Origin: Somniosus microcephalus
Taxonomy: Eukaryota
Reading direction: 5' to 3'
Length of the DNA stretch: 64,000 nucleotides
Assembly: GCA_052327205.1 (NCBI GenBank)
Contig: CM126224.1
Span: 33,604,001 to 33,668,000 of the forward strand
The notes beneath the pieces were generated by a model. It was not told the DNA's origin and did not search any database. It saw only the letters and a list, made by a program, of their open reading frames with translations. Below, piece by piece: positions 3,431-58,965 of this stretch. Both the position numbers and the translations under genes were made by a program. Position 1 is the stretch's first letter, and each line of letters opens with the position of its first letter.

Positions 3431-3531
3431 CCAGTTCTCTAGAAAGATCAACGCTTGAAATGTTAACTCATCTTTTCTCTCCACAGATGCTGAGTGATCT
3501 GCTGAGGGTTTCCAGCATTTTCTGTTTTCAG
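3431..3531 (+). mobile_element. Penelope-like pLTR fragment with degenerate hammerhead motif
   Basis: ccagttctctagaaagatcaacgcttgaaatgttaact...ccacagatgctg...tttccagcattttctgtttt, the same unit as at 54889 and 47233. Confidence 0.7.
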
Positions 3532-3860
3532 TTCTTTGTCATTAGATTACAATGTGGCAATGCACCCAATTACAGCATATCCACAACACAGGGCAGGATG
3601 GTAGCACAAATAGTTAAAGGAAAAAAAAACTGGTGCATTTCAGTTTAGAGCCATCCCTCAGATGAGGCAGAGATTCCCAATGGTATTTGCACCATTTTGC
3701 AGGTTAGATTTTTTTTTGTTCCCTGCCTGCAGAGGAAATGGTGGTTCAAATTTCTCCCACTGTCTAAGGCCATTTCCTTCCCATTGTAATTTTAGCACAA
3801 ACATGCACTGAAAATATATTTGACGCAATGTTTGAATTTTTATTCAAGAAGACATCCTGT

Positions 3861-4828
3861 GACAAGGGAACTAGATGTAATATCTCCAAATTTGCAGATG
3901 ACACAAAGCCGGGTGGGCGTGTGTGCTGTGAGGAGGATGCCGAGAAACTCCAGGATGATTTGGACAGGTTGGGTGATTGGGCAGAAGCATGGCAGATGCA
4001 ATATAACGTGGATAAATGTGAGGTTATCCACTTTGGTGGCAAAAACAGGAAGGCAGATTATTATCTGAATGGCAATAGATTGGGAGAAGGGGAAGTGCAA
4101 CGAGACCTGGGTGTCCTTGTGCACCAGCCGCTGAAGGTAAGCATGCAGGTGCAGCAGGCAGTTAAGAAGGCAAATGGTATGTTGGTCTTCGTAGCGAGAG
4201 GGTTTGAGTACAGGAACAAGGATGTCTTGCTGCAGTTGTACAGGGCCTTGGTGAGACCACATCTTGAGTATTGTGTGCAGTTTTGGTCGCCTTATCTGAG
4301 GAAGGATGTTCTTGCCATGGAAGGAGTTCTGTGAAGATTCACCAGGTTGATACCTGGGATGGCAGGAATGACGTATGAGGCGAGATTGGGTCGATTGGGC
4401 TTATACTCGCTGGAGTTTAGAAGAATGAGAGGGGATCTCATTGATACTTATAAAATTCTGACAGGACTGGACAGACTAGATGCAGGAAGGATGTTCCCGA
4501 TAGTCGGGGAGTCCAGAACCAGGGGTCACAGTCTAAGGATAAGGGGTAAGCCATTTAGGACAGAAATGAGGAGGAATTTCTTCACCCAGAGAGTGGTGAA
4601 CCTGTGGAATTCTCTACCACTGAAGGCAATAGAGGCCAATTCATTAAATATATTCAAGAAGGAGTTAGATATATTTCTTAAGGCTAAAGGGATCAAAGGG
4701 TATGGAGAGAAGGCAGGAACAGGGTACTGAATTTGGATGATCAGCCATGATCGCATTGGATGGCAGAGCAGGCTCGAGGGGCCGAATGGCCTACTCCTGC
4801 TCCTATCTTCTATGTTTCTATGTTTTAT
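3861..4828 (+). mobile_element. Young 5'-truncated CR1 (HER1-like) LINE
   Basis: KFADDTK...WQMQYNVDKC...RDLGV...VRPHLEYCVQFWSP. A single TGA at 4332-4334 splits ORFs 3828 and 4347. 3' tail with ttctatgt repeats. Confidence 0.95.
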
Positions 4829-4893
4829 GCTTCGGGGATTGAGCAAACATCAAAATGTCCAGAACTGCAGGTAACACAGACACAAAGTAAAAC

Positions 4894-5034
4894 AAAAGCA
4901 AAATGCAAAATACTGCGGATGCTGGAAATCTGAACTAAAAACAGAAATTGCTGGGAACCGCTCAGCAGGTCAGGCAGCTTCTGTGGAGAGAAAAACAGAG
5001 CTAATGTTTCAGGTCGATGACCTTTCGTCCGAAC
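4894..5034 (-). mobile_element. Penelope-like pLTR insertion with mutated hammerhead core
   Basis: Minus strand reads gtt-CGGACGA-a-aggtc-atc-gacct-GAAA-catt-agct. Probable TSD acaaagtaaaac (4882-4893) / acaaaataaaac (5033-5044). Confidence 0.8.
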
Positions 5035-5294
5035 AAAATAAAACTTTGCCCTATAACATTAATCAGGTCAATTCAAAAGAATAGAAATTGAAGTAAATGA
5101 ACTAAAAGGAGAAGGATGGCTTAAGAAATTATAGCAGGAGATCCCCAGCCTATGCTGAGATAGCTGAAGGGGGTGGGGGTAAGAGAGGAGAGGGTTAGAA
5201 CTGGCAGGGATAAATTGAGCGAGTGGTCGACTGCTGAATTTACAACTTGAAGTTGCTATCCAGCGACCCATTGCTGCAAGTGTGCATGTGAGGA

Positions 5295-5737
5295 TAGGAT
5301 TGGGCTTGGCTAGGTTTATATTCACTAGAGTTTAGAAGAATGAGAGGGGATCTCATTGAAACTTATAAAATTCTAACAGGACTAGACAGACTAGATGCAG
5401 GAAGGCTGTTCCCGATGGCGGGGTAGTCCAGAACCAGGGGTCACAGTCTAAGGATAAGGGGTAAGCCATTTAGGACTGAGATGAGGAGGAATTTCTTCAC
5501 CCAGAGAGTGGTGAACCTGTGGAATTCTCTACCACAGAAGGCAGCTGAGGCCAATTCATTAAATATATTCAAGAAGGAGTTGGATATATTTCTTAAGGCT
5601 AAAGGGATCAAGGAATATGGAGAGAAAGCAGGGACAGGGCACTGAATTTGGATGATCAGCCATGATCTCATTAAATGGTGGAGCAGGCTCGAGGGGCCGA
5701 ATGGCCTACTCCTGCTCCTATCTTCTATGTTTCTATG
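5295..5737 (+). mobile_element. Young CR1 3' fragment, same subfamily as 3861
   Basis: Near-identical to ~4400-4820 (gagtttagaagaatgagagggg...ctatcttctatgtttctatg). Confidence 0.95.
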
Positions 5738-7261
5738 GCTGTGTCGCTGAATAGTCCACTACGCTTGCATGGTGAAAATTGCTGTCTTGCACGACGTCCT
5801 AGGGGCTGCCCTACTGTGTGGTACCGCAACAGGAGTCAGCACCTGGAGAAAGAAAACTGGGGGGGGGGGTGGAGAAGAGAAGGAGTAAAGAACCAGAATA
5901 ATATATAACCCCATGGTGTACTGGTTCGACACCATTCACTACTAAAACTGTTCTTTTTTAAAACAAAAATTGGATAAAGAGCTGCAGTAGATCGGAGGGG
6001 GTTAATCTGTAGGCACAGAAATGCAATCTGCCCACCCATTGCTATTCCAACTAGTTGAACCACTCCCACCACAGTACTGGAATTTGTTGTTTTATTATTA
6101 AGGCGACACAAGTCCTATTGAGATCATTTTCTGACACACAAGAAAAACAAGTTTGGATCTACTCTTCTGCAGACACATATACCATCGACTCTTGCACTCT
6201 CTCTGTTTGTCACCCATTCAGTTCTTCCTCTGCGTATTCAATTAATCACCAAACACTCAATTTTCAAGGTCATGAAAGCAGCCCTCAAAGTGTCTGTAGA
6301 GCCCACAACTCCCCAACAGGCTTTCTAGATTGAATCTCTCCGATTGCTGGTACTGGGTAAAATGATATTACATTCACCTTGTGGTAAAAGAGCGTTCATT
6401 TGGATTATAGGAGGTTAGTTAATAAGAATCAAGTTGTATCATTTTATCCTGAGATATTATTTCCCTCACCACAAGTGAAGGGCCACTCTTGAAGCAGCGA
6501 GGCTCAGACGGACTGGGCTTTGCACGTTCTCCCAGCCGCTTTTAAAAAACCACATCACTTTTAAAACGCGAAATTTTCATGTCATCTCCTATCAACAAGC
6601 TGTCATCTGCTACGAGCTTATTCTGCTCGCTGCGTTTCATTAACGCCGGCAGACTGTATACATCAGTCAATCAAAGTGCACGCTCCACTTTTAATTCTTT
6701 CGTGTACCCAGCAGTCAGGAACCACAGTTGTCTTTTTATCTTTTTTGTCGCAATGAATTATAGATACAAATCCTTGCAGCATGAATAAGCAAAGATCGTG
6801 CACAAAGCGACAGGCTCTGGTACAGTAGTCGATGATGAATGACATATTTCAAGGAACATGTGTAACAAGACAAATATTCTGTAATGGCAGCAATTAAAAA
6901 GTAATACTTAAATAAAAATCTGAAGAAAATGTGAAGGAGACAATTAACAATAACACTGACTTCATTAAACATCTATGTCATATGTAATATCCGAATGTTC
7001 AACTTACTGCATTAACCAAGAGAGGTTTCAGTTGTCCTGCCCTGCTTATCCATCCTCTTTATTAAGAGAGGGAGAAGCATCTTGTAATTGTGTATCTTCC
7101 AATGAAAATTTAGCAGTTTTTGATTCGTGTCTGTGCATATTTAATTGCATCATCACTGTAGAAATTATTCTTTAGATGGAGGTTGGTTTACCTGAAAATA
7201 TAGGTACCCAAATAGAAATATTAGTGACAGTACATTATGTGACACTCCCATTGACCCACTA

Positions 7262-7879
7262 GCCCCAATATTTACCAGGATAAGGGGAGGGGGGAGGTGG
7301 GGATAGCAGCTGGGAATGCGGGAAACCCAGAGGTCCTGACAAATTTAACAACAGGATCTCATTTAAGTTTTTTGTCTCCGTTTCCCAGCCAGCCAGATTG
7401 AAAAGATAGGCTGGCGGACGTGCAGGAAGGCTTGCGACACCAGGCCGCAGCTGGGGAGCAGAGAGGAGGGAGGGAGAAGATCACGGGCTGGGGAGGACAT
7501 GGGGGGGGTGGCGGGGCATCGGATCGCAGGGAGGGCTCGGCAGATCACGCGGAGGAAGCAGGTTTGATTGAGGGGCCAGGGGGGGAAACACTCCTGCTCC
7601 TCTGGGCGCACAAGCAGTGCTGGAGAGACACTTACCAGCTGGATCCGGCCCTTCTCGCCTCCCCTTCAGTTGGGCTCCTGAAACCGTTAAAAGTAAAGCT
7701 GTGGTTAAATTTGAGGTACGCTGCCTCATTATAATATTTGAATAGAGCGCGGGTTAGTTGCCCACTCCCCAAACCCCCTCCGCTAAAACCGCTTGGAGGC
7801 GGGTTGGACTCGGGTTTCAGATTTTAACATTTTTAACCTCCCCCACCCCTCCCCAATCCTGGGAGGTAAACCCCCCCCC
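7262..7879. mobile_element. GC-rich non-autonomous DNA transposon, probably PIF/Harbinger-like, degraded
   Basis: Sharp GC-rich block with termini ccaatatttacc...ggtaaacccc resembling the other TIR elements in the window. TSD not readable. Confidence 0.5.
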
Positions 7880-8559
7880 ACCGACTCTGTGCTAACTGCA
7901 GCTCCTGTTGGTGAACTTGCAGTTACTTTGCTTAAAAAGTTGAGAAGCAGCTGATGATAAATTGCTGTTTGTGGGCTACAATCCTTTCACAGGATTCCTT
8001 CACATATGTAACAGCAGAGATTCTTTTCAAACATTAAACGTGGAATGTTGGAATTGTGCTATACTCCACAGCTGTAGTTTTTAAACACTTCTGTCTGGAG
8101 GATCCCTCCAAATGCACACTCCAGGAGACACCTTGCAGATTTTGACAGCCTCCCAGGGGCTCCCTGCCCTAATGTCTGAAAGAGACAGCACTGTTTAATT
8201 TGGGTAGCTGACCATCAGGGCCAAAAACTTTTCCCCCCCCTCACTTTGTACACACCAACAGAAATATCTGCGAGCGAGTCAAGAATACCATGAAGATATG
8301 GAACACACAATTCTATAAACACTCTGCTCCTGGCATATGGAACGCCCGGGCCCCAGACGGAAAGAAATCTGCTGTGTTTGCAGCTGCCCAACTATCCCCT
8401 CACAGACCCCGTTTGAAAACCTGTGCCTCACACAATAATTACAACTGCTAAAGATAGATGAAAATACAGATGATGAAAACTCATGACCCAGGACCACTTT
8501 CTGCATCATATGACAATGCATGTCAATGAATGACGAAGCTAGAAACAGTGGAAGTCCAA

Positions 8560-9233
8560 ACAGACTTGGGGGGTCCATGTGCATAGATCATGGGCAGGTA
8601 CAGAAAATAATCAATAAGGCTAATGGAATGCTGGCCTTTAGATCTAGAGGACTAGAATACAAGGGGGTAGAAGTTATGCTGCAGCTATACAAAGCCCTGG
8701 TTAGACCACACCCGGAGTACTGTGAGCAGTTCTGGACACCATACCTTAAAGGATATATTGGCCTTGGAGGGAGTGCAGTGCAAGTTTACCAGAATGATAC
8801 CTGGACTCCAGGGTGAAATTATGTGGAGAGATTACACAAACTCAGGTTGTATTCCCTGGATTTTAGAAGGTTAAGGGGTGATTTGATAGAAATTTTCAAG
8901 ATATTAAGGGGAACTGATAGAGAGAAACCATTTCCGCTGGTTGGGTAGTCATGGACTTGGGGGCATAGTCTAAAAATTAGAGCCAGGTCTTTCAGGAGTG
9001 AAGTTAGGAACTACTTCTACATGCAAGGGATGGTAGAAGTTTGGAACTCTTCTGCAAATGGCAATTGATGCTAGGTCAATTTTAAATATGAGATTGATAG
9101 ATTTTTGTTAACCAAAGGTATTAAGGAATATGGGGCAGAGGCGGGTATATGAAGTTAGGTAACAGATCAGCCATGATCTCATTGAATGGCGGAACAGGCT
9201 CGAGGGGCTAATCGGCCTACTCCTGTTCCTATG
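8560..9233 (+). mobile_element. CR1 3' fragment (different subfamily)
   Basis: KANGMLAF...LYKALVRPH.EYC.QFW, with the typical gatcagccatgatctcattgaatggcgg...ggcctactcctg tail. Confidence 0.9.
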
Positions 9234-12785: not shown

Positions 12786-13496
12786 GGGGGAAAAATTGGG
12801 TTGGTTTGCGCCTCCCGTTAGCGCCCCCGGGAGCGCTAACAGGGCGCAAAGCACCTAGCGCCCGGGCGTGGTGCCGCTAACACCTCCTGTGAAATTCAGT
12901 GGGAGGTTAGCGGCGGTGGTAACGGCCCATGGCGCTGCACCTCTGGCGATGACGTCTTCACCGTGCGCATTGCCGGTCGCTAACTTTGGCTGCACCCCCT
13001 GACTTATCACCGGACGATAAATCAGACAGGGTCAAGGTGGCGTTTTTGCAGCCACGGCGGCGGTATTTAAAGGGGCAGGTGTTGGGCGACCATTTTTTTT
13101 CTGGCCGCCTGCCAGCACCAGCCCACTTCCCCTCTTTTATTCGGGGTGCCGGCCGCGATCGCTCAGCCTGGCACTCCGAGTGCTGGGCTGCTTTCCCGGC
13201 ACCTCGCTCCCCGGTAGTCCAGCAGGGCCCCGGTGCGCGCAGCATTAGGCCCCTCCCCTTTAATCAGGGGAGGGAGGCCTGCAATACCACGGCACCACTT
13301 GCCGATGCGCGTGGCGCTGTTGCACGTAGCGCCACAATATTCACTGGTAGCGCCCCAGGAAGGAGGGGGAGTGCTTCCAGTAGCGCCCTGCCTCCTGCTT
13401 GGGGCACTACCACTGAATTTATGGCACACGGGCGCTAACTTTTTTGGGGCGCTAAAAGTTAGTGCCCCAAAGAGGGCGCCACCAAATTTTTACCCC
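12786..13496. mobile_element. Harbinger-like MITE with TIRs and 3-bp TSD
   Basis: gggggaaaaattgg...ccaaatttttacccc, flanked by tat on both sides. Internal repeated gttagcgc/gcgctaac motifs. Related copy in opposite orientation at 50991. Confidence 0.8.
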
Positions 13497-13519: not shown

Positions 13520-14710
13520 GATGGGAGAATGGAGATGACTTTTAATATAGAGAAAGCATCTACAGTATATACCGTGCAGAGTTGTGTGCTCGAAACGGCT
13601 GAAGGTGAGGAGGAACTGGGGATTATAGTGCACGTATTATTCAAGGTCCATCACCAGTGCCCTGAGGCTATAGCAAAAGCAAATAGGGAATTAAGATGTG
13701 TTGCCAAGACAATTAAATACAAAACAAGAAATGTTATCCTTTATCTGTATAAGGCCTTGGTCAGGCCACATCTAGCATGCTGTGTCCCGTTTCAGTCCGC
13801 TCACATCGTACGGTATATAGAACCCTCGAAAAAAGGTTCAATGTAGAGACAGTAGATTGATACCTACTTTAAGGGCCCTCCAGTAGCAGGATAGGCTAAG
13901 AGAGATGGGGCTTTTTACTTTAAAAAAGCAAATACTTATGGAGGACGATAGCAAAATACTGCGGATGCTGGAAATCCGAAATAACAACAGAAAATGCTGG
14001 AAAAACTCAGCAGGCCAGGCAACATCCGTGGAGAGAAATTAGAGTCGACGTTTCGGGTCTAACCCTTTTTCAAAACTGGAAAGGAAATGAAAAAAGACTT
14101 ATGGAGATTTGATTGAGGTCTAGACAATAATAAAAGGATAAGAGTTAGTCCACATGGAAAGGCTATTCACGCTAGAAAGGTGAGGGAGAACCAGGAGACG
14201 CAAGGATAAGACACATAAGCAAAGAACTATGTCCGATGTTAGGAGGTACTTGTTTTCACAGAGAGTTGTCAACCTGTGGAAAAAGTTGCCAGCAAGTGTA
14301 GTGAGAGTAGATTTTCTGCAAGCATTGAAAAGGGAGCTGGACGAGTTTCTGAGGGTGGCGGACATATCTACATAGAGGGCAGGTGGGTCATCGGGCGGAG
14401 ACCATGGCCTCCTGGAGCTTGCTTGATTAGAAATTATTTTCCCCCAAGAGCTCTTTTTCCTAAATTGGTCAAGGGTTTTTTCCCTTTATTTTGCCTCTTC
14501 CGGGAGATTGTGTGGTGCTGTGTTTGTCTGTGTGTGTATTGGGAGGGTGGGGAAGCGGGGTGCAATGAGGTGATGGTGGGCAGAAGTTACACCATGCCAG
14601 GACGTTCCCATGTCCCACCAATTCATAACGGTAGCACCAGGCACAGCACAAAATAGAATAGGTTCAAGTGGAGCCAGAACGACGGGGACTCTACTTCAGA
14701 ATGTTTCCTT
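13520..14710 (+). mobile_element. Old CR1 3' part with long 3' UTR, interrupted by a Penelope-like insertion
   Basis: LGI.VH...KANR.L...LYKALVRPHL, then FSQRVVNLW.KLP after the insertion. Confidence 0.8.
13944..14096 (-). mobile_element. Penelope-like pLTR insertion
   Basis: TSD acttatggag at 13934-13943 and 14097-14106. Minus strand has gggttagacccGAAAcgtc-gact with a mutated CUGANGA box. Confidence 0.85.
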
Positions 14711-18350: not shown

Positions 18351-18444
18351 ATAACAACAGAAAATGCTGGAAATACTCAGCAAGCCAGGCAGCATCCGTG
18401 GAGAGAGAAACAGAGTTTCAGGTCTGGGACCCTTCATCAGAACT
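18351..18444 (-). mobile_element. Penelope-like pLTR insertion with hammerhead core and stem III deletion
   Basis: TSD cataattgaa at 18341-18350 and 18445-18454. Minus strand reads agtt-CTGATGA-a-gggtc-cca-gacct-GAAA-c, lacking gttaac. Confidence 0.85.
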
Positions 18445-20312: not shown

Positions 20313-21242
20313 CATAAAAACATAGAAGATAGGAGCAGGAGTAGGCCATTCGGCCCCTCGAGCCTGCTCCGCCATTCAATGAGATCATGGCTGATCATCC
20401 AAATTCAGTACCCGGTCCCTGCTTTCTCCCCATACCCCTTGATCCCTTTAGCCTTAAGAAATATATCCAACTCCTTCTTGAATATATTTAATGAATTGGC
20501 CTCTACTGCCTTCTTTGGCAGAGAATTCCACAGGTTCACCACTCTCTGGGTGAAGAAATTCCTCCTCATCTCTGTCCTAAATGGCTTACCCCTTATCCTT
20601 AGACTGTGACCCCTGGTTCTGGACTCCCCGACCATCGGGAACATCCTTCCAGCATCTAGTCTGTCTAGTCCTGTTAGAATTTTATAAGTTTCGATGATAT
20701 CCCCTCTCGTTCTTCTGAACTCCAGCGAGTACAAGCCCAATCGACCCAATCTCTCCTCATACGTCATTCCTGCAATCCCAGGTATCAGCCTGGTGAATCT
20801 TTGCTGAACTCCTTCCATGGCAAGAACATCCTTCCTCAGATAAGGCGACCAAAACTGCACACAATACTCAAGATGTGGCCTCACCAAGGCCCTGTACATC
20901 TGCAGCAAGACATCCTTGTTCCTGTACTCAAACCCTCTCGCTACGAAGGCCAACATACCATTTGCCTTCTTAACCACCTGCTGCACCTGCATGCTTACTT
21001 TCAGCGACTGGTGCACAAGGACGCCCAGGTCTCGTTGCACTTCCTCTTCTCTCAATCTATTGCCATTTAGATAATAATCTGCCTTCCTGTTTTTGACACC
21101 AAGTGGATAACCTCGCATTTATCCATGTTATAGTGCATCTGCCATGCTTCTGCCCAATCACCCAACCTATCCAAATCATACTGGAGTTTCTCGGCATCCT
21201 CCTTACAGCACACACGCCCACCCAGCTTTGTGTCGTCTGCAA
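20313..21242 (-). mobile_element. Young 5'-truncated CR1 (HER1-like) LINE
   Basis: ORF 20405-21118 is the RT C-terminus, near-identical to 3861-4828 in reverse. Truncated at FADDTK. Confidence 0.95.
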
Positions 21243-21374
21243 AGAGGGCAAATTCTTCGTGTAATTTTAAAGAAGGAAAAGACACAGAAGCGGACATTGT
21301 TGTACTTGATTGAAAAGCCAAGGCTTCATTTGTCCATCTTTGCAAAGCAACCCTGCAGTTTTCTTACAGAAAAA

Positions 21375-24177: not shown

Positions 24178-25345
24178 AGAATGTAGAACATAAGAACATA
24201 AGAACATAAGAAATAGGAGCAGGAGTAGGCCAATCGGCCCCTCGAGCCTGCTCCGCCATTCAATAAGATCATGGCTGATCTGATCCTAACCGCCAATCTA
24301 CTATCACAGAACCATCTCCTGAATCTAACAGAATTAGACACACGAAATAGGAGCAGGATCAGGCTACACGGCCCCTGGGCCTGCTCCGCTACCCACAGGG
24401 CCATGACCGAGCTGAACCTAGACTCATGTCCAAATTCCTGCCCGCTCCCCGTAACCCTTAATTCCCTTTACTTCTAGGAAACTGTCTATTTCTGTTTTAA
24501 ATTTATGCAATGATGTAGCTTCTACAGCTTTTTGGGGCAGCATATTCCATGGACCTCCCACCCTCTGAGTGAAGTAGTTCCTCCTCTTCTCAGTTTTGAA
24601 AGAGCAGCCCCTTATTCTAAGACTATGCCCCCTAGTTCTAGTTTCACCCATCATCGGGAACATCTTCCCTGCATCCACCCGATCCAACCCCTTCACAATC
24701 TTATATGTTTTAATAAGATCGCCTCTCATTCTTCTGAACTCCAATGAGTAGAGTCCCAATCTACTCAACCTCTCCTCATATGTCCATCCCCTCATCCCCG
24801 GGATTAACCGAGTGAACCTTCTTTGTACTGACTCGAGAGCAAGTATGTCCTTTCTTAAGTATGGACACCAAAACTGTATGCAGTATTCCAGGTGCGGTCT
24901 CACCAATACCTTGCACAACTGAAGCAATACCTCCCTATTTTTATATTCTATCCCCCTAGCAATGAAAGCCAACATTCCATTGGCCTTCTTAATCACTTGC
25001 TGCACCTGCATACTAACCTTTTGAGTTTCGTGCACCAGGACCCCCAGATCCCTTTGTACTTCAGTACTTTCCAGTTTCTTGCCATTAAGATAATAACTTG
25101 CTCTACGATTTTTCCTGCCAAAGTGCATAACCTCACACTTTCCAGTATTGTATTCCATCTGCCAAATCTCTGCCCACTTACTTAGCCTGTCTATGTCCCC
25201 TTGAAGGTTTTTTATGTCCTCCTCACTCACTACTTTCCCCCCCATCTTAGTATCATCTGCAAACTTTGACATGTTACACTCGGTCCCCTCCTCCAAATCG
25301 TTAATATAGATTGTAAAGAGTTGGGGACCCAGCACTGACCCCTGC
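24178..25345 (-). mobile_element. Young CR1 LINE with ~300 open RT codons and a duplicated 3' tail motif
   Basis: QGSVLGPQLFTIYINDL...KFADDTK...to the stop at 24424 with no interruption. Ends in agaacata repeats. Confidence 0.95.
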
Positions 25346-27432: not shown

Positions 27433-28298
27433 AACATAGAAACATAGAAGATAGGAGCAGGAATAGGCCATTCGGCCCCTCGAGCCTGCTCCGCCATTCA
27501 ATGCGATCATGGCTGATCATCGAAATTCAGTACCTGGTCCCTGCTTTCTCCCCATGCCCCTTGATCCCTTTAGCCTTAAGAAATATATCCAACTCCTTCT
27601 TGAATATATTTAATGAATTGGCCTCTACTGCCTTCTGTGGTAGAGAATTCCACAGGTTCACCACTCTGGGTGAAGAAATTCCAAATCATTTCTGTCCTAA
27701 ATGGCCTACCCCTTATCCTTAGACTGTGACCCCTGGTTCTGGACTCCCCGACCATCGGGAACATCCTTCCTGCATCTAGTCTGTCCAGTCCTGTCAGAAT
27801 TTTATAAGTTTCAATGAGATCCCCTCTCATTCTTCTAAACTCCAGCGAGTACAAGCCCAATCGACCCAATCTCTCCTCATACGTCATTCCTGCCATCCCA
27901 GGTATCAGCCTGGTGAATCTTCGCTGAACTCCTTCCATGGCAAGAACATCCTTCCTCAGATAAGGCGACCAAAACTGCACACAATACTCAAGGTGTGGTC
28001 TCACCAAGGCCCTGTACAACTGCAGTAAGACATCCTTGTTCCTGTACTCAAACCCTCTCGCTACGAAGGCCAACATACCATTTGCCTTCTTCACCGCCTG
28101 CTGCACCTGTATGCTTACCTTCAGCGACTGGTGCACAAGGACACCCAGGTCTCGTTGCATTTCCCCTTCTCCCAATCTATTGCCATTTAGATAATAATCT
28201 GCCTTCCTGTTTTTGCCACCAATGTGGATAACCTCACATTTATCCACGTTATATTGCATCTGCCATGCTTCTGCCCAATCATCCAACCGGTCCAAATC
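27433..28298 (-). mobile_element. Young 5'-truncated CR1 (HER1-like) LINE
   Basis: DLDRLDDWAEAWQMQYN...; same subfamily as 3861 and 20313. Small frameshifting deletion near 27660. Confidence 0.95.
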
Positions 28299-28961
28299 AA
28301 AACAGAGCAGCGCAGATTTTAGAGCAGGAGCTGTAAAATAAAAATACAATTTTAATTTTCTGACTGCAATTTTTAATATTGTACAGCTGCACATGAACTC
28401 CCGTAACTGTGTGAAATAGTGGTAATTATTATTTTTGCGGTGGCTTTAATAAACCTTGGTGTTTCAAGTTTGTATCTTAACCTTTTATTGAACCGTGATG
28501 ACTAATGCTTTAATACTGATTTTGAAATGTTGGGATTCGTTAGATCCAAGAAAAGCAATGGAATCATTCCATAACCACAAACTATTTGTGCTCCAATCTT
28601 CCTATCAAAGTTCTCAAGAGACTGATTCAACTATGAAGTTTTTAAGCTGGTTTTGTATGAAAATAACACAGCATCTGCATTTTTCTGCATTAGCGGGGAA
28701 AGAGAACTGAAAGGAACTTCACTCTCAATGGGTTGGTATGGGAGATTGACCAAGATCGTCAGCCTCACTTCGCTCAGTACCTAATGGGAATATTTCAGGT
28801 CAACTGAATAGAACTGAAAACAGAAATATTTCATAAAACCCCAAAGTTGTATATTCCTGTTAATTATTGACTCGAGAGATTTCATGGAGTGAATTTTACT
28901 GAGCAAACTTCCAGGTGGTTTTGCTGTGAATTTTGTGCATGAACAGGGACTGCTAGATATT

Positions 28962-34833: not shown

Positions 34834-35156
34834 CAGGAAACTTTGTGATATCCGGCACCGACGGGACCGGCGTGTTGCCGATCTATCAAAACTGCCGGAC
34901 ATACAAAGTTAATGTTGAAGCATATGGAGGTTTTCATCTCCGTATCTGACAACAAACACTGTTGCTTAGCAACAGCTTCTAAAGAGTCGGCAGCAGCTGC
35001 AAGCATCTCTAGCTGTAGCTGTTGCTATAGCTACAGACCCTGACTGGGGAAAAAAAAGAACGAGAACTAAAAAAACTTATAGAAAACGGCTCCTGATTTT
35101 TGCCGTTAGATCGAGTATTCCGGACATACAACCTCCGGATAAACCAAAGTTTCCTG
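34834..35156. mobile_element. pogo/Tigger-like MITE, copy 3
   Basis: TA|caggaaactttgtgatatccgg...ccggataaaccaaagtttcctg|TA. Confidence 0.92.
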
Positions 35157-35420
35157 TATTTTTTTCTCGTTTCCTCACATGGTAGCTGTTAATGTTGCTG
35201 CCATCATAATCCACACATCATCTAGAGCCATCTTTTATATCTTAACTTGTCCCATTACCTCTCCTTTTGCCTTGCACTATCATCCCTTTTGTCAATCGCT
35301 TCTGCCTTCCATCCTATCACACACCTTCCCTTTGTTCTTTCCTCCCCTCCTCCATGCCCCTGCTTAAAAATCTCTCCTCCCTAACCTTTTCCCGTTCTGA
35401 CGAAGGGTTCGACCTGAAAC

Positions 35421-36238
35421 AAGGGGCTTGATTTTAGTCACCGAGACGAGTTGGGGGCGGAACTGCTGCCTTCCGGGTTCTAGTCCTGCCCCCAGCGACG
35501 TCCGACACTATTATCCCCTGATTGGCCTTGTTAAGACCGCACTGCGGGCTTGCTGGCCAATTAAGGGAAAGCCGGTGTCAGATGACGTCAGTTGATGACG
35601 CTTCATCTGCCAGTTTTCTTAAAGGCACATGAACCATAAATTTTTGACAGATGATTTGACAGCGTTTGACAGCATTGAGCTGCTGTCAAACACTGACAAT
35701 CACTGTACAAAGGTGAGCCCTTGCACCCAGGCTCTCAAATGACTCTCTCCTTAGGATGAAACAGATGGCAGCTGCAGGTGAGGGTACAGAAGCGATCTGT
35801 CACTTCTCCCATTGAGGTGAGACCACACAAACACTTCAAAGCTAGTCACCTACAGAAAAATCTAAACATATTAAAAATGACTTTCCCAACATTTCCTTAC
35901 CTCTGATACTCACCAGTGTCCCATTGCATTCTTCACACCACTTCTGCAGCTGCCATCTGTACACCAACAGTACAACAGACCCACAGCACGCCTTACTTAC
36001 CCTGGCGGGGTTCCCTGATGTCGGGAAGCCTGCAGCAGAAGCCTAAAAATTGGAAAATGCCTCTTAACTGCCCGTTAACAGGCAGTTAAGTGGCTATAAT
36101 CCTCTTCCCACCGCTAGGAGTTGGGTCCCTGTGCAAATCGATGACCCGACTCCCGGGAAGATTGGTTGAAGGCGGGTTCGGGACCCGCTCCCATTCCTTT
36201 TGACTTCCCGCCTCCTCAGGGCTGGTAAAATCCAGCTC
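35421..36238. mobile_element. Harbinger-like non-autonomous element
   Basis: TIRs gggcttgatttta / taaaatccagctc. Highly similar second copy at ~52120-52905. gcacccaggctctcaaatgactctctc (APRLSNDSL) resembles the start of the Harbinger Myb/SANT-like ORF. Confidence 0.8.
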
Positions 36239-37084
36239 GTTGACTCTGTTTCTCTCTCCTCAATGCTGCCTGACCTGCTGAGTGTTTCCAGCATTTTCCG
36301 TTGTTATTTCAGATTTCCAGCATCCGCAGTATTTTGCTATTGTTTAAGATCCCAGATTTAGGTACTGGTTCAAACTTGCACATTTATCCCTCTATTTCTC
36401 ACATTCATGGATCCTATTCCATCTGAGCATGTGGCTGGACTCAGTGAACCATGACCCTCCTCTCTAATGATGCTCAAAGTTTAATGAAGGAGTGGTGAGA
36501 GATGTTTTTCCTCTTCCCCTACGTAGGTGTCCCATATCCACAGCTCCTCCACCCATCATAGGAAAACATAAAACTGGCAACTCCAATCCCCAGGCAGTGA
36601 AAAGTGCTTAAAACTAAAGATCTTCTAGACGTTTTTACACTCCAACATCACAGCTAAACTGCCCAACTTATCTTGTTCCACAATAGCAAAGATCCACATT
36701 TTCATGGGTGTTATAAATTGCCAGCAGATTCATGGGCTCTGCTTCTGCTGCATAACTGGTCGGAAATATAAAAGGGGAGTGTGGTGCCAAAAGGCCGATT
36801 AATTGACACTGGCACTACATTGTAAAAAACGCTTAAATGACAATCCTGCTGGATAATTCGGTTTCATACAAATGGGATCACTGTTTCTTTCAACCTTCTA
36901 TTCAACACATTCCCATAGAATTATTCAGCAGCACGATCAATCTAGCAAAAAGAAATCTCTCACTTTTCAGCCTTTTATTTTTCTCCATAAATATCCATTT
37001 TCTCAAGATTCTAATTATTAAAGTAATTTCCTTCAGATGTGTAAGGAAAATAAAATCTCCTTTTATTAGACAGCATTTTTTAAG

Positions 37085-38320: not shown

Positions 38321-39737
38321 AAATGCAAGTTGTTTTGTTAGTTCGTTTTTGTTAGTTCGTTCATTTGTAACTGAATGTAAACCACAGAAAAATCACCACA
38401 AGCCTCAATGTGCTCAAGAAATGATCAGCAAGGCCAGAAGCAAGGATTTATTTTGAGAAATGAATGTGCATCCATTTTAGGAATAAAGACTCATATCCCC
38501 CCCCCCCACCCCCTTCCCCATTATTTACTTTATTTATTGTAAGCATCAATCACAATTTGCAGCCAAGGCACTTTGGCTCTACCTAGTCATTTGTATATTG
38601 AATAAAGCAGCAAAAATCAAGTAAAACGACAGACAGACCCAAAGCACAAACAGATTTCAAGCTGGAACTAATTTAAAACATGGGTAAATATCTCTAGGCA
38701 AAAAGTACTCACTGCAAGGTGGAAATAGGACTTAAAAGGCAAAAACAGGAAACTTCTTTGGAGTATCAGAGAACAAAGACTGAATTTTGGTCCCGGAATT
38801 TCCAAATTAGGCGTAATTTTCCTTTGTCTGCAATTTTACTGCGGGCTTGTTTAACTCATCGACTTTATGGTTGGAATAGGAAAAGTTAAACTGAATAATG
38901 CCCTGGAGTGACTTGGTGAAAAACCAGGAGTGAATGCTTTGAAGTGCTTTTATTGGCTTGTAGTAGACTCATGTTGTGTTTTCAATTATTCCAAGCACTC
39001 CCTGCAGCAAGGCTGAGTATTAGGTTGTGCAGTCCAGTTCTGTGAATCATTTTGCTGGTAGGTCCAGTGAATATTTCATTTGATTCATTGAATTGTTGGC
39101 TTTTAAACAGAATAAGTTGTCAACTGCACATTGGTGGTGCCTATGGTAATTGTTTCATTTATTCATCATGATAATCTTGAACAATCTCACAGGTGCAAAG
39201 CACTTCTTAAAACTACTGTACTCCAAACGCTGTCCTGGTGAGGTGAAGCTGACTTCTAGTTTACAGTATGGCAGACTCATATGGCACTTACCATTTTAAC
39301 ATCTGTTATTTCACTTTGGGTTGTAATGTGGGATTTCAGCTAGCCATAAGTTGTTGTTGACTATGATAAAAATGCAGTACAGCTTTTTAAAGAGCTATAT
39401 ACAAACTACTCACTTTAAAGAACATTGGAACTGATCAGAGGCTACAGATTTTGTAACATGTGGGCGTTCAATATAATGGTGTTAACTACAAACTGCAGGT
39501 ACAAATAGCAAGGCAACTTTATTATGTGACCATGGATATAACCCAAGGGTTGTTATTCCAGTCCAGGACTAATGACACTCCAGAGAATGGTACAGTTTCA
39601 AGCTCTGTGCCATTAACACAAAACTTAATACCAATGCACTCTCACTAGGCCGTAAGTTATTGCCAATAGACAATTGAACCGACAAACTAATTCAATCCTG
39701 GAAATAAGTAAACATTTACAAGACTGGAAAGAAACCA

Positions 39738-39760
39738 TTTCCAGCATTTTCTGTTTTTAT
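39738..39760 (+). mobile_element. 23-bp Penelope-like pLTR micro-insertion
   Basis: tttccagcattttctgtttttat between perfect 13-bp direct repeats tggaaagaaacca (39725-39737, 39761-39773). Confidence 0.75.
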
Positions 39761-39986
39761 TGGAAAGAAACCACATTGGTCTTTGGAGAAATTCAATACC
39801 AAGATTATTAATAATGCTGTGGCATCAAGACTATTAGCCATAGCAGGTTGATACACATTTTCCTAAGAACAGCTCAAGCGTTATCCTTCTTTGTTGCCTC
39901 ATGTAAGCTGAAGTTATCAAATATTAAAAAGGCACGCAAATTGGAGTACCAGCCTTCGAAGATCAGCCATGATCTAATTGAATGGT

Positions 39987-40173
39987 CATGGTGTGGAGAT
40001 GCCGGTGTTGGACTGGGGTGGACAAATGTAAGAAGTCATACAACACCAGGTTATAGTCCAACAGCTTTATTTGAAATCACAAGCTTTCGGAGCGCTGCTC
40101 CTTCATCAGGTGAAGTCACTTGTGATTTCAAATAAAGCTGCTGGACTATAACCTGGTGTTGTATGACTTCTTA
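39987..40173 (-). mobile_element. Second Penelope-like family, inverted pLTR insertion
   Basis: 12-bp TSD taattgaatggt (39975-39986, 40174-40185). 55-bp inverted arms at 40029-40083 and 40119-40173 with one mismatch. Confidence 0.85.
40077..40113 (-). ncRNA. Minimal type I hammerhead ribozyme motif (Penelope-type)
   Basis: Minus strand reads UCAC-CUGAUGA-A-GGAGC-agc-GCUCC-GAAA-GCUU-GUGA: full core, 5-bp stem II, palindromic AAGCUU stem III, 4-bp stem I. Confidence 0.8.
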
Positions 40174-40894
40174 TAATTGAATGGTGGAGCAGACTCGAGG
40201 GGCCATATGGCCTACTCCTGCTCCTATTTCTTATGTTATGTTCTTTTGAAAAAGTTGTGTGCAGTTTTTGAACATTTTACTAAGCTTGGCATTCCAATTG
40301 ATGATACAGTAATACCCCAGTTGACAAATTGCTGTGATTATAGACACTTGGCACAAGCTGAGCTTTCACTAAACCTTAGCTGATGTTCTAAAATGCGATT
40401 TTTCTGAAATTTTTCGGCATCTCTGGAGCAATAATTGAATATTCACAGAAGCATAAAGCCATATTTAGTAGATCAAAAGCTTTTTGAATAGAGTTCTAAA
40501 TTCTGGTGTTCTATTATTCATTGCTGCTTTCCTGTTAGTTACAATTTTGCTAAACCTATTAAATTGTATTTATTTTATGTACAGTTTATTGAGTACCACT
40601 GTAGTGTGAAATTAGACCAAAACAGATCCAAATTCTACTGACCAGAGGGCTCAATGCCAATGAGCTTTGTTGGCAGTGAGTGCAGGGGTGAAACAGACAA
40701 GAAAGAGAAGGTAAAGTCATCATATTCCTGGTCGACTCATTGATTTTTACCAGCAAATACAGACAAGCCGACAGTAGATCCAAAATGCTGACTTGACTGT
40801 GTAAAATGCTGATGATTGGTATTTATGACAATATGCAGAGTTTGAATACGTCCAGCTACTCATTGTTAGTTTTAGGATTCAGACTTGTATGACA

Positions 40895-47158: not shown

Positions 47159-47350
47159 AAATAAAAACAGAAAATGCTGGAAATACGCAGGTCAGGCAGC
47201 ATCTGTGGAGAGAGAAACAGTTAACGTTTCAGGTCGATCTGAAACATTAACTCTGTTTCTCCCTCTACAGATGCTGCCTGACCTGCTGAGTATTTCCAGC
47301 ATTTTCTGTTTTTAGTTCAGATTTCCAGCCTCCGCAGCATTTTGCTTTTG
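47159..47350. mobile_element. Head-to-head (palindromic) Penelope-like pLTR insertion
   Basis: 14-bp TSD ccccacattctact (47145-47158, 47351-47364). Arms fold back about tttcaggtcgatctgaaa. Confidence 0.9.
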
Positions 47351-47889
47351 CCCCACATTCTACTGTTGTGCAAATACTCAGACATCAATCCCAAAGAGGC
47401 ATCTTGTTAACTCTCTAGTATAGCAGTGTAGCTTCATCGCGCCCTTGGCAGCTGATGCCGAGGGTGTTGGCTTTCCTTATTCTCTTATCCCCGTCTACCT
47501 TATTGTTAAACGCAGGCACGTCATTGTAGCATTCCCGACAGTTATTTTGTGTTGCTCACTTTGTGCAGTGTGTGAAGGATGCAGATCTACATTTAAAATT
47601 AAAATCAGACCAATAGGTGTGATACCTTAATGGCGATGAAGGAGTTTCTTTCTGGTATGCTGCACTCATACTTCTGCGATAACACTAAACTTGTTTGGGT
47701 CACGTACAATGGTGGCTTTCCAGGCTGCACAATCGGTGAACTTTAACTCCGAGCTAAGGGTACCCATGGTGTAGCACCAATTCTCAACGCAAGCCGAGAC
47801 TGCAAAATCACGTGCAGAATTGAGAACACTTGTGTGGAGAGTTTGAAAGAATTTAGTCCACTTGTGATCGTCAGTGTCCCAAGCTTCAT

Positions 47890-52905: not shown

Positions 52906-53209
52906 CTTGTGTCTCCTACAATTCAGAGTGTACCTATCTCTGCCTAATATCTGGGTAGTAAGACCCAGGGATTGTAACTGTACCCCAGCTACCGGCCTCC
53001 ATCATATACTGCTACATGATTCTGCTCTCTGAATATTCATTCTGTTAGACTATACTCAGATGGTCTATTCAAATAAAACAGGTAAATGAACTGTATACAG
53101 TATAAAACAGTGCATCATACACTTCACTTTTCGCTATATAAATATGATCCATAAAACTTCTCCGCTAACAGAAAAGCAGCCCATCAACTTTGAAATTGAC
53201 TGATTTCAC

Positions 53210-53450: not shown

Positions 53451-54884
53451 TAAGGTCAAAGATTCAACATCCTTTGAAGATATACTGAAACAAAAACCTA
53501 CAAGTCCTTTAGCGATATTAAATGTTAAGCCTATACTTGACAATGGCATACGACACTTGTCATTCAATACGAAATCTGGGGTCCTAAGCACAATTAGCAC
53601 CCAAGGGTTCCTGTTGTGTTTTCCCTAACAATTCGCACCTTGTGAAGCTTACCATAGCCAAGCGATCTGGTCTCTGATTTCAGGGTTTTCCCTTTGAGAA
53701 ATACCCTGTTTGATTCAGGGTTTTTAACCCGTTATATGCTGTTTCGGGCAAGAAAGAAGAAGAAGAATTCCACACAGACAAAAATATATGTCAGTAACAG
53801 AACCTGCGCTTCGAAGTTGTGCCTTGCAAGTTTAGGTGGCTGAATCCCATCAAACATATTTGCTGAGTTGCAGCATTCCTCAGCAGGGCAAGACATATAC
53901 ATTTTCACTTTGGGAGAAAGCAAAACAGACACTAGATCCCTTTCAACCCGAAGTGAACCCTCCACTGCAAGCACCGTTAATATTGCGTGTTAAATGTCCG
54001 ATCCAGGTAGAATTTTGTTTTTATTTCATTGGCTAAGGAAGATGTTGGTTGTGATGATTTTCCATTTACTCAATGACAAGATAGACTCGTTTCAGCTTGT
54101 ATTGGTCAAACAAGCTCCAAGAAAGCAGCTAGGATTGGTTTATTGACATGGTATTTTATGTACAAGGGCCAATTTATATTAAAATTTAAGCGAAATGCTA
54201 AAACCATAGGATATAAGAGTTCATGCTTGGCTGATTCTCTTAGCAAAGGAATAGTAAATTCCTAGGTAACATGCGATTTTTGCAAGGGACTGCAATCATG
54301 GTGTTCCTCACACCTCCCGCATTATATTTTGTAAATGCTTTTCTTTTAAAGTAGTGAGGTGTTGATTTGCTAGGCTGCAGAATCAAGATTGATTTAGAAA
54401 GAGTTTTAAAATTAGGGATGCTGACAAGTCTAAATTTTAAATCGACAATATTAATTAAAATCTTCACCAGAAGTTCAGCACTATAAGGGGAAAAGTGGAT
54501 TTACTGTCTGATTCTAGACTGGATCTTAGAACTGGTAGAAGCCCAAAAGGAAGCAATCTCTCCATTCTCAAACTTAAAGAGTTGTGTGCATTAAAGACCC
54601 TAATCAGAGAAGTGAAAACAGTTTTAAAGAGAATAAACTGTTCCCTGCACTCTACCCCTTAGTCGCAATATTTCCTCATTAGTGGTTTGGTAAGAATTTT
54701 TTTTCTGGTCCGTTCGGTCATCATGATTTATGCCGCCCTTTACTATAGCACCAATCCTCATAGGGGCATAGGGAGAAGCGAGTCTATGAACCAATTTCAA
54801 GAGCCTTATTCTCACCATCAAATGGCTTCATGGCCTTCTTCAGCCCTCCTCTCCATGCTTGTCCGCTTCCCTCCTTTGAACCCT

Positions 54885-54995
54885 TTTTCCAGTTCTGACG
54901 AAAGACCATCGACCTGAAACGTTAACTTGGTTTCTCTCTTCACAGATGCTGCCCAAGGTGCTGAGTATTTCCAGCATTTTATGTTTTTATTTCAC
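54885..54995 (+). mobile_element. Penelope-like pLTR with hammerhead core (54889-54930) and weakened stem II
   Basis: ccagtt-CTGACGA-a-agacc-atc-gacct-GAAA-cgtt-aacttgg, then cacagatgctg...tttccagcatttt. Confidence 0.8.
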
Positions 54996-55280
54996 TTTGC
55001 TCTTTTGTTGGTTCCTCTCTCAGCCACCATGCCCCTAGTTTCTGGCACTCTTCCAAAATCCCTTTGCCTCACATCATCTCTCTCCGCTTTCAAAAGCTTG
55101 CACTGAAGTCTAATCTCTTACTCATCTGTTGGGCTCACCCGTTAATTGCATTCAATCTTTTCTCCTCCCATTTAGCGTCAGTTTCTTAAATTGCTCTGGG
55201 ACATTTTCTGGTGTGAGGATCTTTGTATAAAGGGAAATTGTTATATCTTAATACTCAATCACTTCATCTGATGTTTAGAT

Positions 55281-55735
55281 CAACAACAAAAACAACTTGT
55301 ATTTATATAGCACCTTTAATGTAGTAAAACGTCCCAAGGTGCTTCACAGGAGTACTAGAAGACAAAAACAAATGACACCGAGCCACATAAGGGGAAATTA
55401 GGGCAAATGACCAAAAGCTTGGGCAAAGAGGTAGGTTTTAAGGCGCGTCGTAAAGGAGGAAAGAGAGGTAGAGGGGCGGACAGGTTTGGCGGGGGGGGCG
55501 GTGGGAATGCCAGAGCTTAGGGACGAGACAACAGAAGGCACGGCCACCAACGGTTGGGTGATTATCAGGAATGCTCAAGAGGGCTGAATTAGAGGAGCGC
55601 AGATATCTCTCTGGGGGCGGGTGGGCGGCTTTGCAGAGCTGGAGGAGATTAAAGAGGTAGGAAGCGGCGAGGCCATGGAGGGATTTGAAAACAAGGATGA
55701 AAATTTTGAAATCGCAGCGTTGCTCAGAGAGACTA
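55281..55735 (-). mobile_element. L2 LINE 3' end
   Basis: FKIFILVFKSLHGLAASYL...LRSS...GGRAF...PKLW. Tail ggtgctatataaatacaagttgtt is shared with the DeuSINE tails. Confidence 0.88.
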
Positions 55736-56939
55736 TCATAATAACAAATAATCCAATTTTTGTTCGGCATGAATTTTTTGTTGAAACTACAGCAGGAGTA
55801 GCATTCTTTTCAAATGTTTTCTATATTTTGCAAGGCTGAGTTGAAGTATTTTGAAATACTTCAATTGTAGTCTTTTGTTTTAATTGTACATTAAAACAAT
55901 AGTCACCCCTATTTTTCTTAGCTTTTTTTAAAATTACAATATGAAAGATTTAGAAATTGTCAGTAAAAATTCCCAATGTTTTTCTCATTTAAGTGTTTCT
56001 TGACAACATTTCAGTACAGGGAACATTCCAATTGTTCAGGATTGCTCCTCAAGTCCATTGATAAGTACAGGAGACAATAACAGGCAAGGGCAATGCATTA
56101 GTTCTTCTCAAGAGTTGTGGCAATCTTGCAGAACAGCAAGGGGTCATAATTAATCTGGAGCACACACAGTTATCTAAGGTTTGTCTATGAATGTTAGAAA
56201 GAGGAGCAGATGTGGTGGGACCCCTCGGCTTTCCTTTGGGTTTTGATTACTGCCACTCACCGAAATTGCCCGAATTTTCAACCACGTGACTGAAGTCAGC
56301 ACTCAAGTAATTATATAAATGTATGAACTCCGTACAGTACAAAGAAACAGCATAGTTGCAAAGAATTTCCTGTGGAGCTTCAAACAATGCATGTCTTGAC
56401 TAATTGCGGCTCAGTGTGCTACGCCACACAGTGGTAGGCATTGCTTTGAGGCTGTGATTACCCAAATGCCGGAGGGAGGAAAGATTTCCTTTATGCACTA
56501 TTTTTAAAATTGTAAATCCATTTATCGAGAATGGGTTGGCACATAGTCCCCTCTCCACCACCACCCGCCCCGCCCCTCCCAAAGTGAGTTCCTCCACAAA
56601 ATCTTTCCCTTTGACCAATCTTTCGGTCACCCCTCTCAATCATTCCTTTGCGTTATTTTTCATAAGCTTTTCTGGGAAGTGCCTTGAGATTTCTTTTACA
56701 TTAAAAGGCACTAAATGAATGGAAGTTGTTGTTGAGTTCATTACCTCAGCCTGTCTTGTCAGAGGGAAGCGCCGAGCAGAAGTAAAACACTTTGCCCAAG
56801 GGAGCGTAAAAATCACAACGCCTGTCAACTTGGCCACCTCTCATGCAGCTCCTAATAATCAGTGCTGGGCCGCATTGTTAGTGACCAGAGAACAGATCTA
56901 TCTGCCTTGTTGGCTAGGTAAAAATGGGAGTTAAGCGCC

Positions 56940-57355
56940 TTCGATGGCTCAGTAATTAATTGAGTGCGTCGCTTAAGCTATACAGTACAAGTCGTAAATT
57001 TAAAGCCCAATTTGTGTAGAGTTAGCTGATCTGAAACTGGGTGGCAATAAAGTTAAAACTGGCTTCAGCATCCTAGATTGGGGAAGGGGGGGTGGGTGGT
57101 GGGAAATCAGCCAAGATTCCCACTCTTATTACAATCTAGAAACTGCTGCTGGAGGTGTTGCATTGGCATCAAATGAGGGCAGAATGAGGTGCAACTCTGC
57201 TGTGTCCCTCGGTCACATAGCCTGCCAATGTTCACTGTTAAAGCTCAAACAGGAACAATAGCTATTTGGACAAAGTACCAGAGAGCAACTGGCACGCCAA
57301 AAAAAAAAAAAACTGTACCCCAGAAAGTGGCTAGTGCCTTCAGGAGAGGAGAAAA
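56940..57355 (+). mobile_element. Old SINE-like repeat with A-box-like head
   Basis: gatggctcagt head; body homologous to 30130-30400. Confidence 0.55.
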
Positions 57356-58472
57356 TTATTTAAAAAAAAAAAAAAAGAGTAGAAAGGAATACCAACACAG
57401 CTTTACCCCATCGTACACATCACTTCAAAACAGACACTAGATTCAGATTCTGCTGCATTCAATATCTATTTGACATGCTGCACAGTAAAATAATTATTCA
57501 AATTATACCGAGAGATGGTAATACACAGACAGGAATGGGCAACCTTTGCTCCTTAAGGACTAGTAAATTGGGTGGGGAAATTTGATTTAACAGTTCCAAC
57601 CTCTGCTCTCATCATTGCAAATCTCATTTATCTACAAAGATCTAGTTACTGTTAATGATTCACTGACTTCTTGAAGTAGTCCTTAAGTACCGATTACATG
57701 AAACAGCATTTTCTGAACATCATTAACAGATATTCCCTGAAGTGTAAATGAAAACAGGAGTTCTGTACACGACCCAAAAATGCTATAAGTGAACCCCAAG
57801 TTTGTGACAATAAGAGACTCGTGTAGTCATGTCACACATATGTTATTGTACTTGACTAAAATGAGGAAAATATTCTGACTACAAATATTGCACTTGTTAA
57901 TTAAAACATCTCATGAAGATAGAAGTTAAAATTATGTCCATGAGTAATACATTGGTCAGCTCATAGGTTGGAAATTGAAAATTACAAGTCTTAAGTTGCC
58001 ATCGAAGCATCAGTTTATTTCACAATTTTTACGAGTCGAATGAAAAGAGAGGACAAGGTTTTTTGAAATGCATTTTGAAAAACATACCAGAAAAAGAAAT
58101 GGAAAGCAAAAGCTAAATTTGACAATTAATTAAGACTTACTTAAAGCTAGGGAACAAATGACCAGATTAATATTAAAACTTCTTCCAAAGACTATAAATG
58201 AGGTGCTAAAATTATGATTACTTCATTGACAAAAACATTTCATACAATCCAATATGATTTGAAAATCAATGATTTTTGAGAAGTGACAGAACTTGCTTAA
58301 ATCACAACATCTCTGGTTAGGTTCAGTTTCTCAGCAATAGCTTGAACCCTGGAAGGCCTGCGTAGCTCCAGGGTTTTATTCAGCATTTACCCCATTTGCC
58401 TTTTGTTCATTGGAAGTTACCAATTAATCATCCTGTTTGAAGTTTTAGGTAAAAAGTTACAATATCTAGCTC

Positions 58473-58965
58473 AATAGCAAAATACTGCAGATGCTGGAAA
58501 TCAGCAGGCCAGGCAGCATCCGTGGAGAGAGAAAGAGAGTTAACGTTTCAGGTCGAAGACCTTTCATCATAACGGGAAAAAAAGCAGGAAAAGGAACAGA
58601 TTTTAAAGCAAGTTCAGGGGCTGGGAAATGGGGGAGGGGATAAAAGAACAAAAGGGAAGGTCTGTGATAGGATGGAAGGCAGGAGAAGTAAAGAGGCATT
58701 AAGAGATATTCAAGGCAAGAGGAGATGGTAATGGGACAGGTTAAGAAACAAAGGATGGCTCTAGATGGAGTGTGAATTGTGCAAACACGAGAAGGGAAAC
58801 TGAAAGCAATGAAGATGAACAAGGTTGAAGAGACAAACGGAAATCCCGTTGGAGAGAAGAGCAGAACTTCTTCAAGGTGAGCATTCCTAGAAGAGAGGTG
58901 GCAGTGAACCAAACACTAATACAATAACAAAATACCGCAGCTGCTGGAAATCTGAAACAACAACT
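58473..58965 (-). mobile_element. Penelope-like element 3' region with partial tandem pLTR
   Basis: Minus strand reads gtt-ATGATGA-a-aggtc-ttc-gacct-GAAA-cgtt-aact (C3 mutated). UTR is homologous to 35200-35400. A second pLTR piece lies at ~58920-58965. Confidence 0.8.

Follow-up and report, generated by a model that had tools for sequence, protein, structure and literature searches.

Penelope-like pieces in the window

The window analysed here, a stretch of 64,000 nucleotides from Somniosus microcephalus (assembly GCA_052327205.1, contig CM126224.1, positions 33,604,001 to 33,668,000), contains nine dispersed pieces related to the hammerhead-bearing ends of Penelope-like elements (PLEs). All nine, reported in an original prediction made from the sequence alone, were recovered: self-comparison and a profile search gave 11 matches in the window, the 25-bp piece at 39738 being detected by BLAST only. 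Identity to the genomic parents L115 and L002 ranged from 75 to 93%, and was 100% for the 25-bp piece (Table 1). Positions within the family are numbered from C3 of the CUGANGA core; stem I begins at -4 and the cut falls at +28/+29.

The hammerhead motif announced for most pieces is real for the family; in the window, however, eight of the nine pieces are damaged or without the core. None of the window copies is cleanly canonical, the only complete hammerhead, at 13944, being a U3-A8 variant. The copy at 35395 is split at the cut site, and the piece at 39738 and both arms at 47159 are without CUGANGA. An Rfam scan of the window for hammerheads gave no match (10 weak unrelated hits).

The five target-site duplications (TSDs) of 10-14 bp reported earlier were confirmed, with scores of at least 10 at 3431, 13944, 18351, 39738 and 47159, a level reached by 1 of 300 random intervals. 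The repeat at 4894 is a borderline sixth, with a score of 9 (at least 9 in 6 of the 300 intervals), and a TSD search at 35395/36239, 54885 and 58473 found none. As for 5' ends lying close to stem I, this held at 4894 (about -4 to -1), 18351 (-4) and 13944 (-19), whereas the edge at 3431 is blurred by overlap with its TSD.

Table 1. Penelope-like and associated features in the window (site 1 and site 2, near +97 and +130, are the two 3' end positions of the family).
Positions	Strand	Feature	Flanking repeats and remarks
3426-3535	+	Decayed stub with a destroyed core (CUCUAGA), ending 3' at site 1	13-bp direct repeat 3426-3438/3523-3535, 1 mismatch, overlapping its own 5' edge
4894-5035	-	Stub with core CGGACGA, running from about the start of stem I to site 2	12-bp TSD, 1 mismatch (4882-4893/5033-5044)
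13944-14092	-	Stub reaching from -19 to site 2; its hammerhead is complete, as a variant with the U3-A8 core UUGAAAA and a GUC triplet (position of C3 at 14073)	TSD 13930-13943/14093-14106; 10 bp exact, or 14 bp with 1 mismatch
18351-18444	-	Stub, A(-4), the first stem I base, to site 1; stem III and cut site lost by a deletion	10-bp TSD 18341-18350/18445-18454
35155-35420	+	5' half of a longer 5'-truncated terminal-repeat copy (about -243), ending GAAAC	No TSD found
35421-36237	.	Element of about 820 bp with terminal inverted repeats, inserted at the scissile triplet of the ribozyme	Presumably Harbinger-like
36238-36343	+	3' half of the split copy: 3' strand of stem I and tail to site 2	
39737-39761	+	25-bp tail fragment without ribozyme, ending at site 1	13-bp exact TSD 39725-39737/39761-39773
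39986-40175	-	Member of a second hammerhead family with its core intact (C3 at 40109), UCAC/GUGA as stem I, an AGCU palindrome and a fold-back	Approximate bounds, defined by interruption of the CR1-type tail
47159-47351	.	Head-to-head inverted mini-insertion, arms joined in the stem II loop: minus arm 47159-47238 to site 1, plus arm 47234-47351 to site 2	14-bp exact TSD
54884-54994	+	Stub running from about -12 to site 1, with an intact core (C3 at 54895) and a broken stem II	No TSD
58473-58965	-	Internally deleted PLE: 58965-58782, 5' tail and start of the open reading frame (92% to L115:3422-3604), joined to terminal repeat, hammerhead (C3>A) and tail to site 2	

The parent element and its abundance

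The Penelope origin proposed earlier is borne out, since full-length parents combining GIY-YIG and reverse transcriptase (RT) with the same pseudo-long terminal repeat (pLTR) sequence were found. Relatives of the 54885 piece extend upstream into RT and GIY-YIG coding sequence. A query with the RT gave 35,484 candidates, of which 150 were scored and 20 loci with long open reading frames (ORFs) retrieved; of these 20, L112 and L115 have the ribozyme at each end, and their 5' tail continues in frame into the ORF. The open frame of L115 (983 aa) runs through ribozyme and tail, and includes RVT_1 (E 8e-6) and GIY-YIG (E 5e-4) matches, both slightly under the Pfam curated cut-offs, as well as a C-x4-C-x2-C motif ahead of GIY-YIG. 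The tail, described at first as non-coding, is thus read on into the RT ORF in full-length copies, and window positions 58782-58965 carry that ORF start. A start codon inside CUGAUGA was considered and rejected, as it is not kept in two of the three subfamilies distinguished here (B and C, as opposed to A); an ATG at about +49 is kept.

The motif in L115 is a CxxC linker between RT and endonuclease, which Nematis also has (Craig et al. 2021), and points to a PLE of the Neptune/Nematis type. The shark family has a single ORF with RT and C-terminal GIY-YIG, pLTRs, partial tandems, an inverted truncated partner and a one-sided tail. It shares with canonical endonuclease-bearing insertions of Neptune and Nematis, as far as the accessible parts of their descriptions go, 5' truncation, partial tandems, an inverted 5'-truncated partner, a one-ended tail of 30-40 bp, a pLTR plus tail extending over the first codons, and TATA and initiator-like motifs in the pLTR (Craig et al. 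2021; Arkhipova et al. 2013, PMC3846280). The nine pieces are the pLTR-plus-tail 3' ends of an abundant PLE, putatively of the Neptune type. They are ordinary PLE ends, not a separate mini-element, and their value lies in the pattern of their endpoints.

A random 1.2-Mb sample (120 x 10 kb) contained 76 matches, or about 400,000 if scaled to the 6.4-Gb genome; three exact 28-mers occurred 6,715, 33,276 and 14,673 times in the genome. A third, divergent hammerhead-like motif (CUGAYG..GGGUCAUCCAGAC), lying behind a common upstream sequence in L042, L049 and L103, was excluded from all counts.

The family ribozyme

The family has the features of minimal type I hammerheads, namely the core, stems I and II and a palindromic stem III. 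Across 18 family variants, 98.8% of cells were paired, and stem I, stem II and the 3-8 pair all showed changes on both sides; none of 500 shuffles scored as high and slid controls scored lower, although relatedness among the sequences inflates the figure. C3-G8, U3.G8 and U3-A8 are all present within this one family, and U3 was observed in 33 of 37 cores of subfamily B, the most numerous young subfamily. Monomer folding z-scores ranged from -0.7 to +1.3 relative to shuffles, which is uninformative for so small a ribozyme. Minimum-energy folds of monomers and dimers were mostly not hammerheads, and the predicted dimers were not the hammerhead dimer.

The ribozymes closely resemble the minimal type I hammerheads of metazoan PLE pLTRs (PMC4209133, Cervera and De la Pena 2014) in the CUGANGA/GAAA core, the extra base before stem II, the short stem I, the palindromic stem III (ACGU), the occurrence of dispersed single motifs from truncated PLEs, and the U3-A8 variant. 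They differ in that the shark family mixes the three 3-8 pairs; the accessible part of that account includes no endpoint statistics. Self-cleavage by the family ribozyme is putative, and nothing in the copy ends requires it.

5' ends pile up at the front of the ribozyme

To describe the 5' ends, we pooled 185 copies from two samples: the random sample, from which 18 of the 76 matches were excluded (members of another family, 3' halves left by split copies, and matches that were old or tiny), and a pattern set of 137 copies, reduced to 127 after collapsing 8 duplicated rows and dropping 2 split copies. The latter came from contig C1 only and is biased to young copies. As ordinary truncation would give, the 5' ends ranged from +65 to positions past -1400, with 92 of the 185 reaching more than 40 nt upstream. 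Against this spread, 39 ends fell within -8 to +9 (1.74 versus 0.18 per 100 nt at -9 to -400; ratio 9.7, p = 7e-21), in a bin that was picked after both samples had been seen. With a bin fixed beforehand (-20 to +15) and tested on the later pattern set, the rate ratio was 5.6 (p = 5e-11). Each sample showed the pile-up when taken by itself, and so did the non-inverted copies (ratio 8.4); on its upstream side the ends drop away abruptly. Histogrammed against the ribozyme, 5' endpoints are therefore not uniform and concentrate near the start of stem I. Genome-wide, hand counts of 100 matches listed, once scaled, gave about 700 ends at -4 (1,504 matches), 650 at -2 (1,010) and 350 at -6 (1,096).

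No excess of ends was detected at the cut site (3 of 127 copies at +25 to +33, none of them non-inverted), and we argue that ribozyme cleavage does not set the ends of the inserted unit. An apparent class of ends at +25 to +29 was rejected because it reflected inverted-repeat elements inserted there. These elements, 780-870 bp long, mutually different and flanked by 3-bp TSDs, sit exactly on the ribozyme GTT triplet at window positions 35421-36237 and in L043, L080, L144, L176, L213 and L302 (L108 likely); since the flanks match their general target preference (16 sites), this is likely a coincidence of sequence.

Fixed 3' ends and inverted pairs

The 3' ends were confined to two positions within the ORF start: 57 of 127 copies ended near +97 (site 1) and 63 near +130 (site 2), giving 120 of 127 in total. 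Head-to-head insertions combined one site 1 end with one site 2 end in 30 of 31 classifiable pairs (p = 1.5e-8; 4 more were unclassified), and the mini-insertion at window position 47159 is built in the same way. Arms differ in subfamily markers in L204 and L309 and share a private change in L263, suggesting that two RNA templates are used at least sometimes.

By analogy, the two fixed 3' ends, which correspond to the known optional tail, fit the two internal RT starts of PAc, a Poseidon element of Anolis (Frangieh et al. 2024, PMC11167929). PAc likewise has the ribozyme at the ORF start and two internal RT start sites bounding the tail; its uncleaved RNA is the main template, and no reads were obtained at the cut site. 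It differs in clade features (CxxC linker), and the accessible part of its description mentions neither run-off stubs nor a start at stem I, and neither an extra G nor pairing of site 1 with site 2. In the accessible accounts of endonuclease-bearing PLEs, the tail is credited to endonuclease resolution and inversions to self-priming (Craig et al. 2021; PMC3846280), whereas the present counts fit priming at both nicks, one per site.

A TATA-like box and a second hammerhead family

Thirty nucleotides before A(-4), a TATA-like box (TTAATA/TTAAAA) was observed in 23 of 28 copies of subfamily A and 7 of 9 of subfamily C (30 of 37 together), and in none of 28 copies of subfamily B. The strength of the 5' peak was 21 in A, 15 in C and 2.7 in B. 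In A and C, A(-4) lies in the initiator-like sequence CCAGTT.

The original prediction missed a second hammerhead family, represented in the window at 39986-40175, where the ribozyme arm begins at A(-7) (40116) behind a G. This family, which provided an independent test, is younger than the first and has a canonical TATA box, TATATA(A/T)G, 30 nt before A(-7); a 27-mer from it gave 18,706 matches across the genome. By hand count, 26 of the 32 ends visible among 100 matches listed fell at -8 to +5 and none at -9 to -13, forming a cliff at -8. At A(-7), the likely start site, hand counts gave a preceding G in 77 of 100 among the matches listed (of 314), versus 31% expected; the figure was 67 of 90 once ambiguous fold-backs were set aside, and 20 of 33 for non-inverted copies. 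In L1, an extra 5' G marks copying of the cap (PMC11702581, as far as the accessible text goes), and capped RNA would be expected to leave such a G here.

Origin of the ribozyme-length copies

The ribozyme-length stubs are probably run-off complementary DNAs (cDNAs), for which RT would start not far inside the PLE transcript's front and run on to the capped 5' terminus. The TATA-like box would start transcription at about A(-4), and such a start would yield an RNA with ribozyme plus tail at both ends. Site 1 and site 2 would be the alternative starts of target-primed reverse transcription. Ordinary 5'-truncated copies would result from priming in the 3' repeat or from synthesis that continues after a jump, and a stub of 100-135 bp from priming in the 5' repeat and joining without a jump. 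Both nicked target strands could prime, one per site, to produce the head-to-head pairs.

Several observations weigh against this proposal. At 5' junctions, 1-3 nt are often common to copy and TSD, and this microhomology blurs the position of the end. Subfamily B differs from A and C in the ribozyme core as well, so that the correlation between TATA-like box and peak is confounded. In the first family, the extra G was not significant (16 of 45, p = 0.28). Among 100 listed matches reading through into the ORF, 58 extended more than 40 nt upstream and only 6 stopped at -10 to +5 (hand count); run-off synthesis therefore needs either efficient jumping between terminal repeats or a second, upstream start, which would reconcile the upstream-extending copies with a hard RNA end. 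Jumps do appear to occur, since the ribozymes of L115 differ (A-type at the 5' end, L115:3334; B-type at the 3' end, L115:6494), likely through a template switch. In D. virilis, Penelope transcription begins 46 nt ahead of an intron of 75 nt (PMC2377424). The end of that intron maps to helix I (PMC4209133), which, according to the accessible parts of these reports, places the start about 120 nt upstream of helix I. The pooled copies also show a weaker cluster at -83 to -125, defined post hoc (16 ends, ratio 3.3). By analogy, the -83 to -125 cluster, being near that position, is possibly a second start site.

If the stubs are run-off products, a broader and more tentative picture may be drawn, in which PLEs replicate as a hybrid between long interspersed elements (LINEs) and retroviruses. 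Transcription would start at the first base of the ribozyme, target-primed reverse transcription would begin about 100-135 nt from the cap, and the strong-stop cDNA would normally jump to the 3' repeat; a dimeric enzyme would prime both nicked strands, and the stubs would be failed jumps, preserved in tens of thousands of copies. A literature search for PLE run-off, strong-stop or cap-G reports found none, subscription journals being thinly covered. The endpoint pattern bears on PLE transposition, on the one-ended tail and on the role of the hammerhead, and makes three sharp predictions that the existing in vitro PAc system could test: that capped transcripts begin with the first stem I base, that run-off yields products of 100 and 135 nt, and that each double-primed target has one start at site 1 and one at site 2.

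It is unlikely that the edge is instead a structural stop, in which RT primed in the 3' repeat falls off just past the folded or protein-bound ribozyme, or on the upstream U-rich tract, with microhomology trimming the end. The strong peak in the subfamilies with C3-G8 cores (A and C), weak in the U3-rich subfamily B, would suit such a stop, as would the microhomology at 5' junctions and the raised number of ends at +10 to +25. A stop would, however, be expected on entry to a stem and not on exit; subfamily B, although it retains the pyrimidine tract, has little peak, the monomer fold does not exceed shuffles in stability, and the 77% G of the second family is left unexplained.

Highly improbable is an edge formed by a 3' splice site (pyrimidine tract and YAG at -5 to -3), with stubs copied from spliced RNA. 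YAG is indeed kept in 58 of 58 scored long copies, and a Penelope intron ends at helix I (PMC4209133, accessible part); nevertheless, inspection by eye of 200 listed ends at -4 and -2 revealed no common upstream exon except a transposon passenger, and the second family has the same cliff without an AG at that position. The upstream sequence common to 27 of 100 listed -4 ends was rejected as a spliced exon, as it reflects one stub carried by a DNA transposon. This 100-bp stub, with its 12-bp TSD, lies within the transposon in L321-L328 and was amplified with it to about 400 copies by scaling.

The least probable reading, marginally behind splicing, is that of the original prediction, in which a non-coding, ribozyme-bounded unit is transcribed and mobilised alone as a short interspersed element (SINE) or retrozyme. 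Unit-sized copies do make up 21% of the total and 6 of the 16 TSD-defined copies of the pattern set, and Xenopus retrozymes are described, in the accessible part of a preprint, as derived from pLTRs (bioRxiv 10.64898/2026.07.22.740005). A self-standing unit bounded by cleavage is nonetheless not supported: the ends lie at the ribozyme front and not at the cut, the unit includes the ORF start, half of all copies (92 of 185) reach beyond 40 nt upstream, and there is no short-copy lineage. The 36 short copies among 115 rows required 29 label changes, versus a shuffled mean of 30 (96 columns only; starred branches force at least 14 changes). Short copies are scattered over all subfamilies, which indicates that they were made repeatedly from the autonomous element, and without a lineage of their own this reading fails. 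Stubs also lack an upstream TATA-like box, and the sole amplified stub (27 of 100 among matches listed) is a single insertion with one common 12-bp TSD, carried in the DNA transposon. An Rfam scan found no tRNA, 7SL or 5S head on the pieces; no dedicated A/B-box scan was run.

Like the stubs, non-LTR retrozymes combine a type I hammerhead, PLE ancestry and short non-autonomous DNA (Cervera and de la Pena 2020, PMC7229834; Li et al. 2026, bioRxiv). The accessible parts of these reports describe them as tandem repeats of 150-450 bp, cut from ribozyme to ribozyme into circles, whereas the present stubs are solo or inverted, with a single ribozyme at the front, and end at RT start sites. Among the 87 + 137 copies examined, only solo or head-to-head arrangements and no head-to-tail arrays of the unit were found; one array of a 420-bp truncated copy is part of a host tandem repeat.

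Other features of the window

A long hairpin at 13335-13421 gave weak miRNA-family scores far below gathering thresholds, and is probably a small palindromic transposon. Four LINE 3' ends, which we assume to be of CR1 type, lie at 3866-4822, 20313-21243, 24347-25287 and 27433-28299 and are 70-95% alike; several genomic PLE stubs sit within such repeats.

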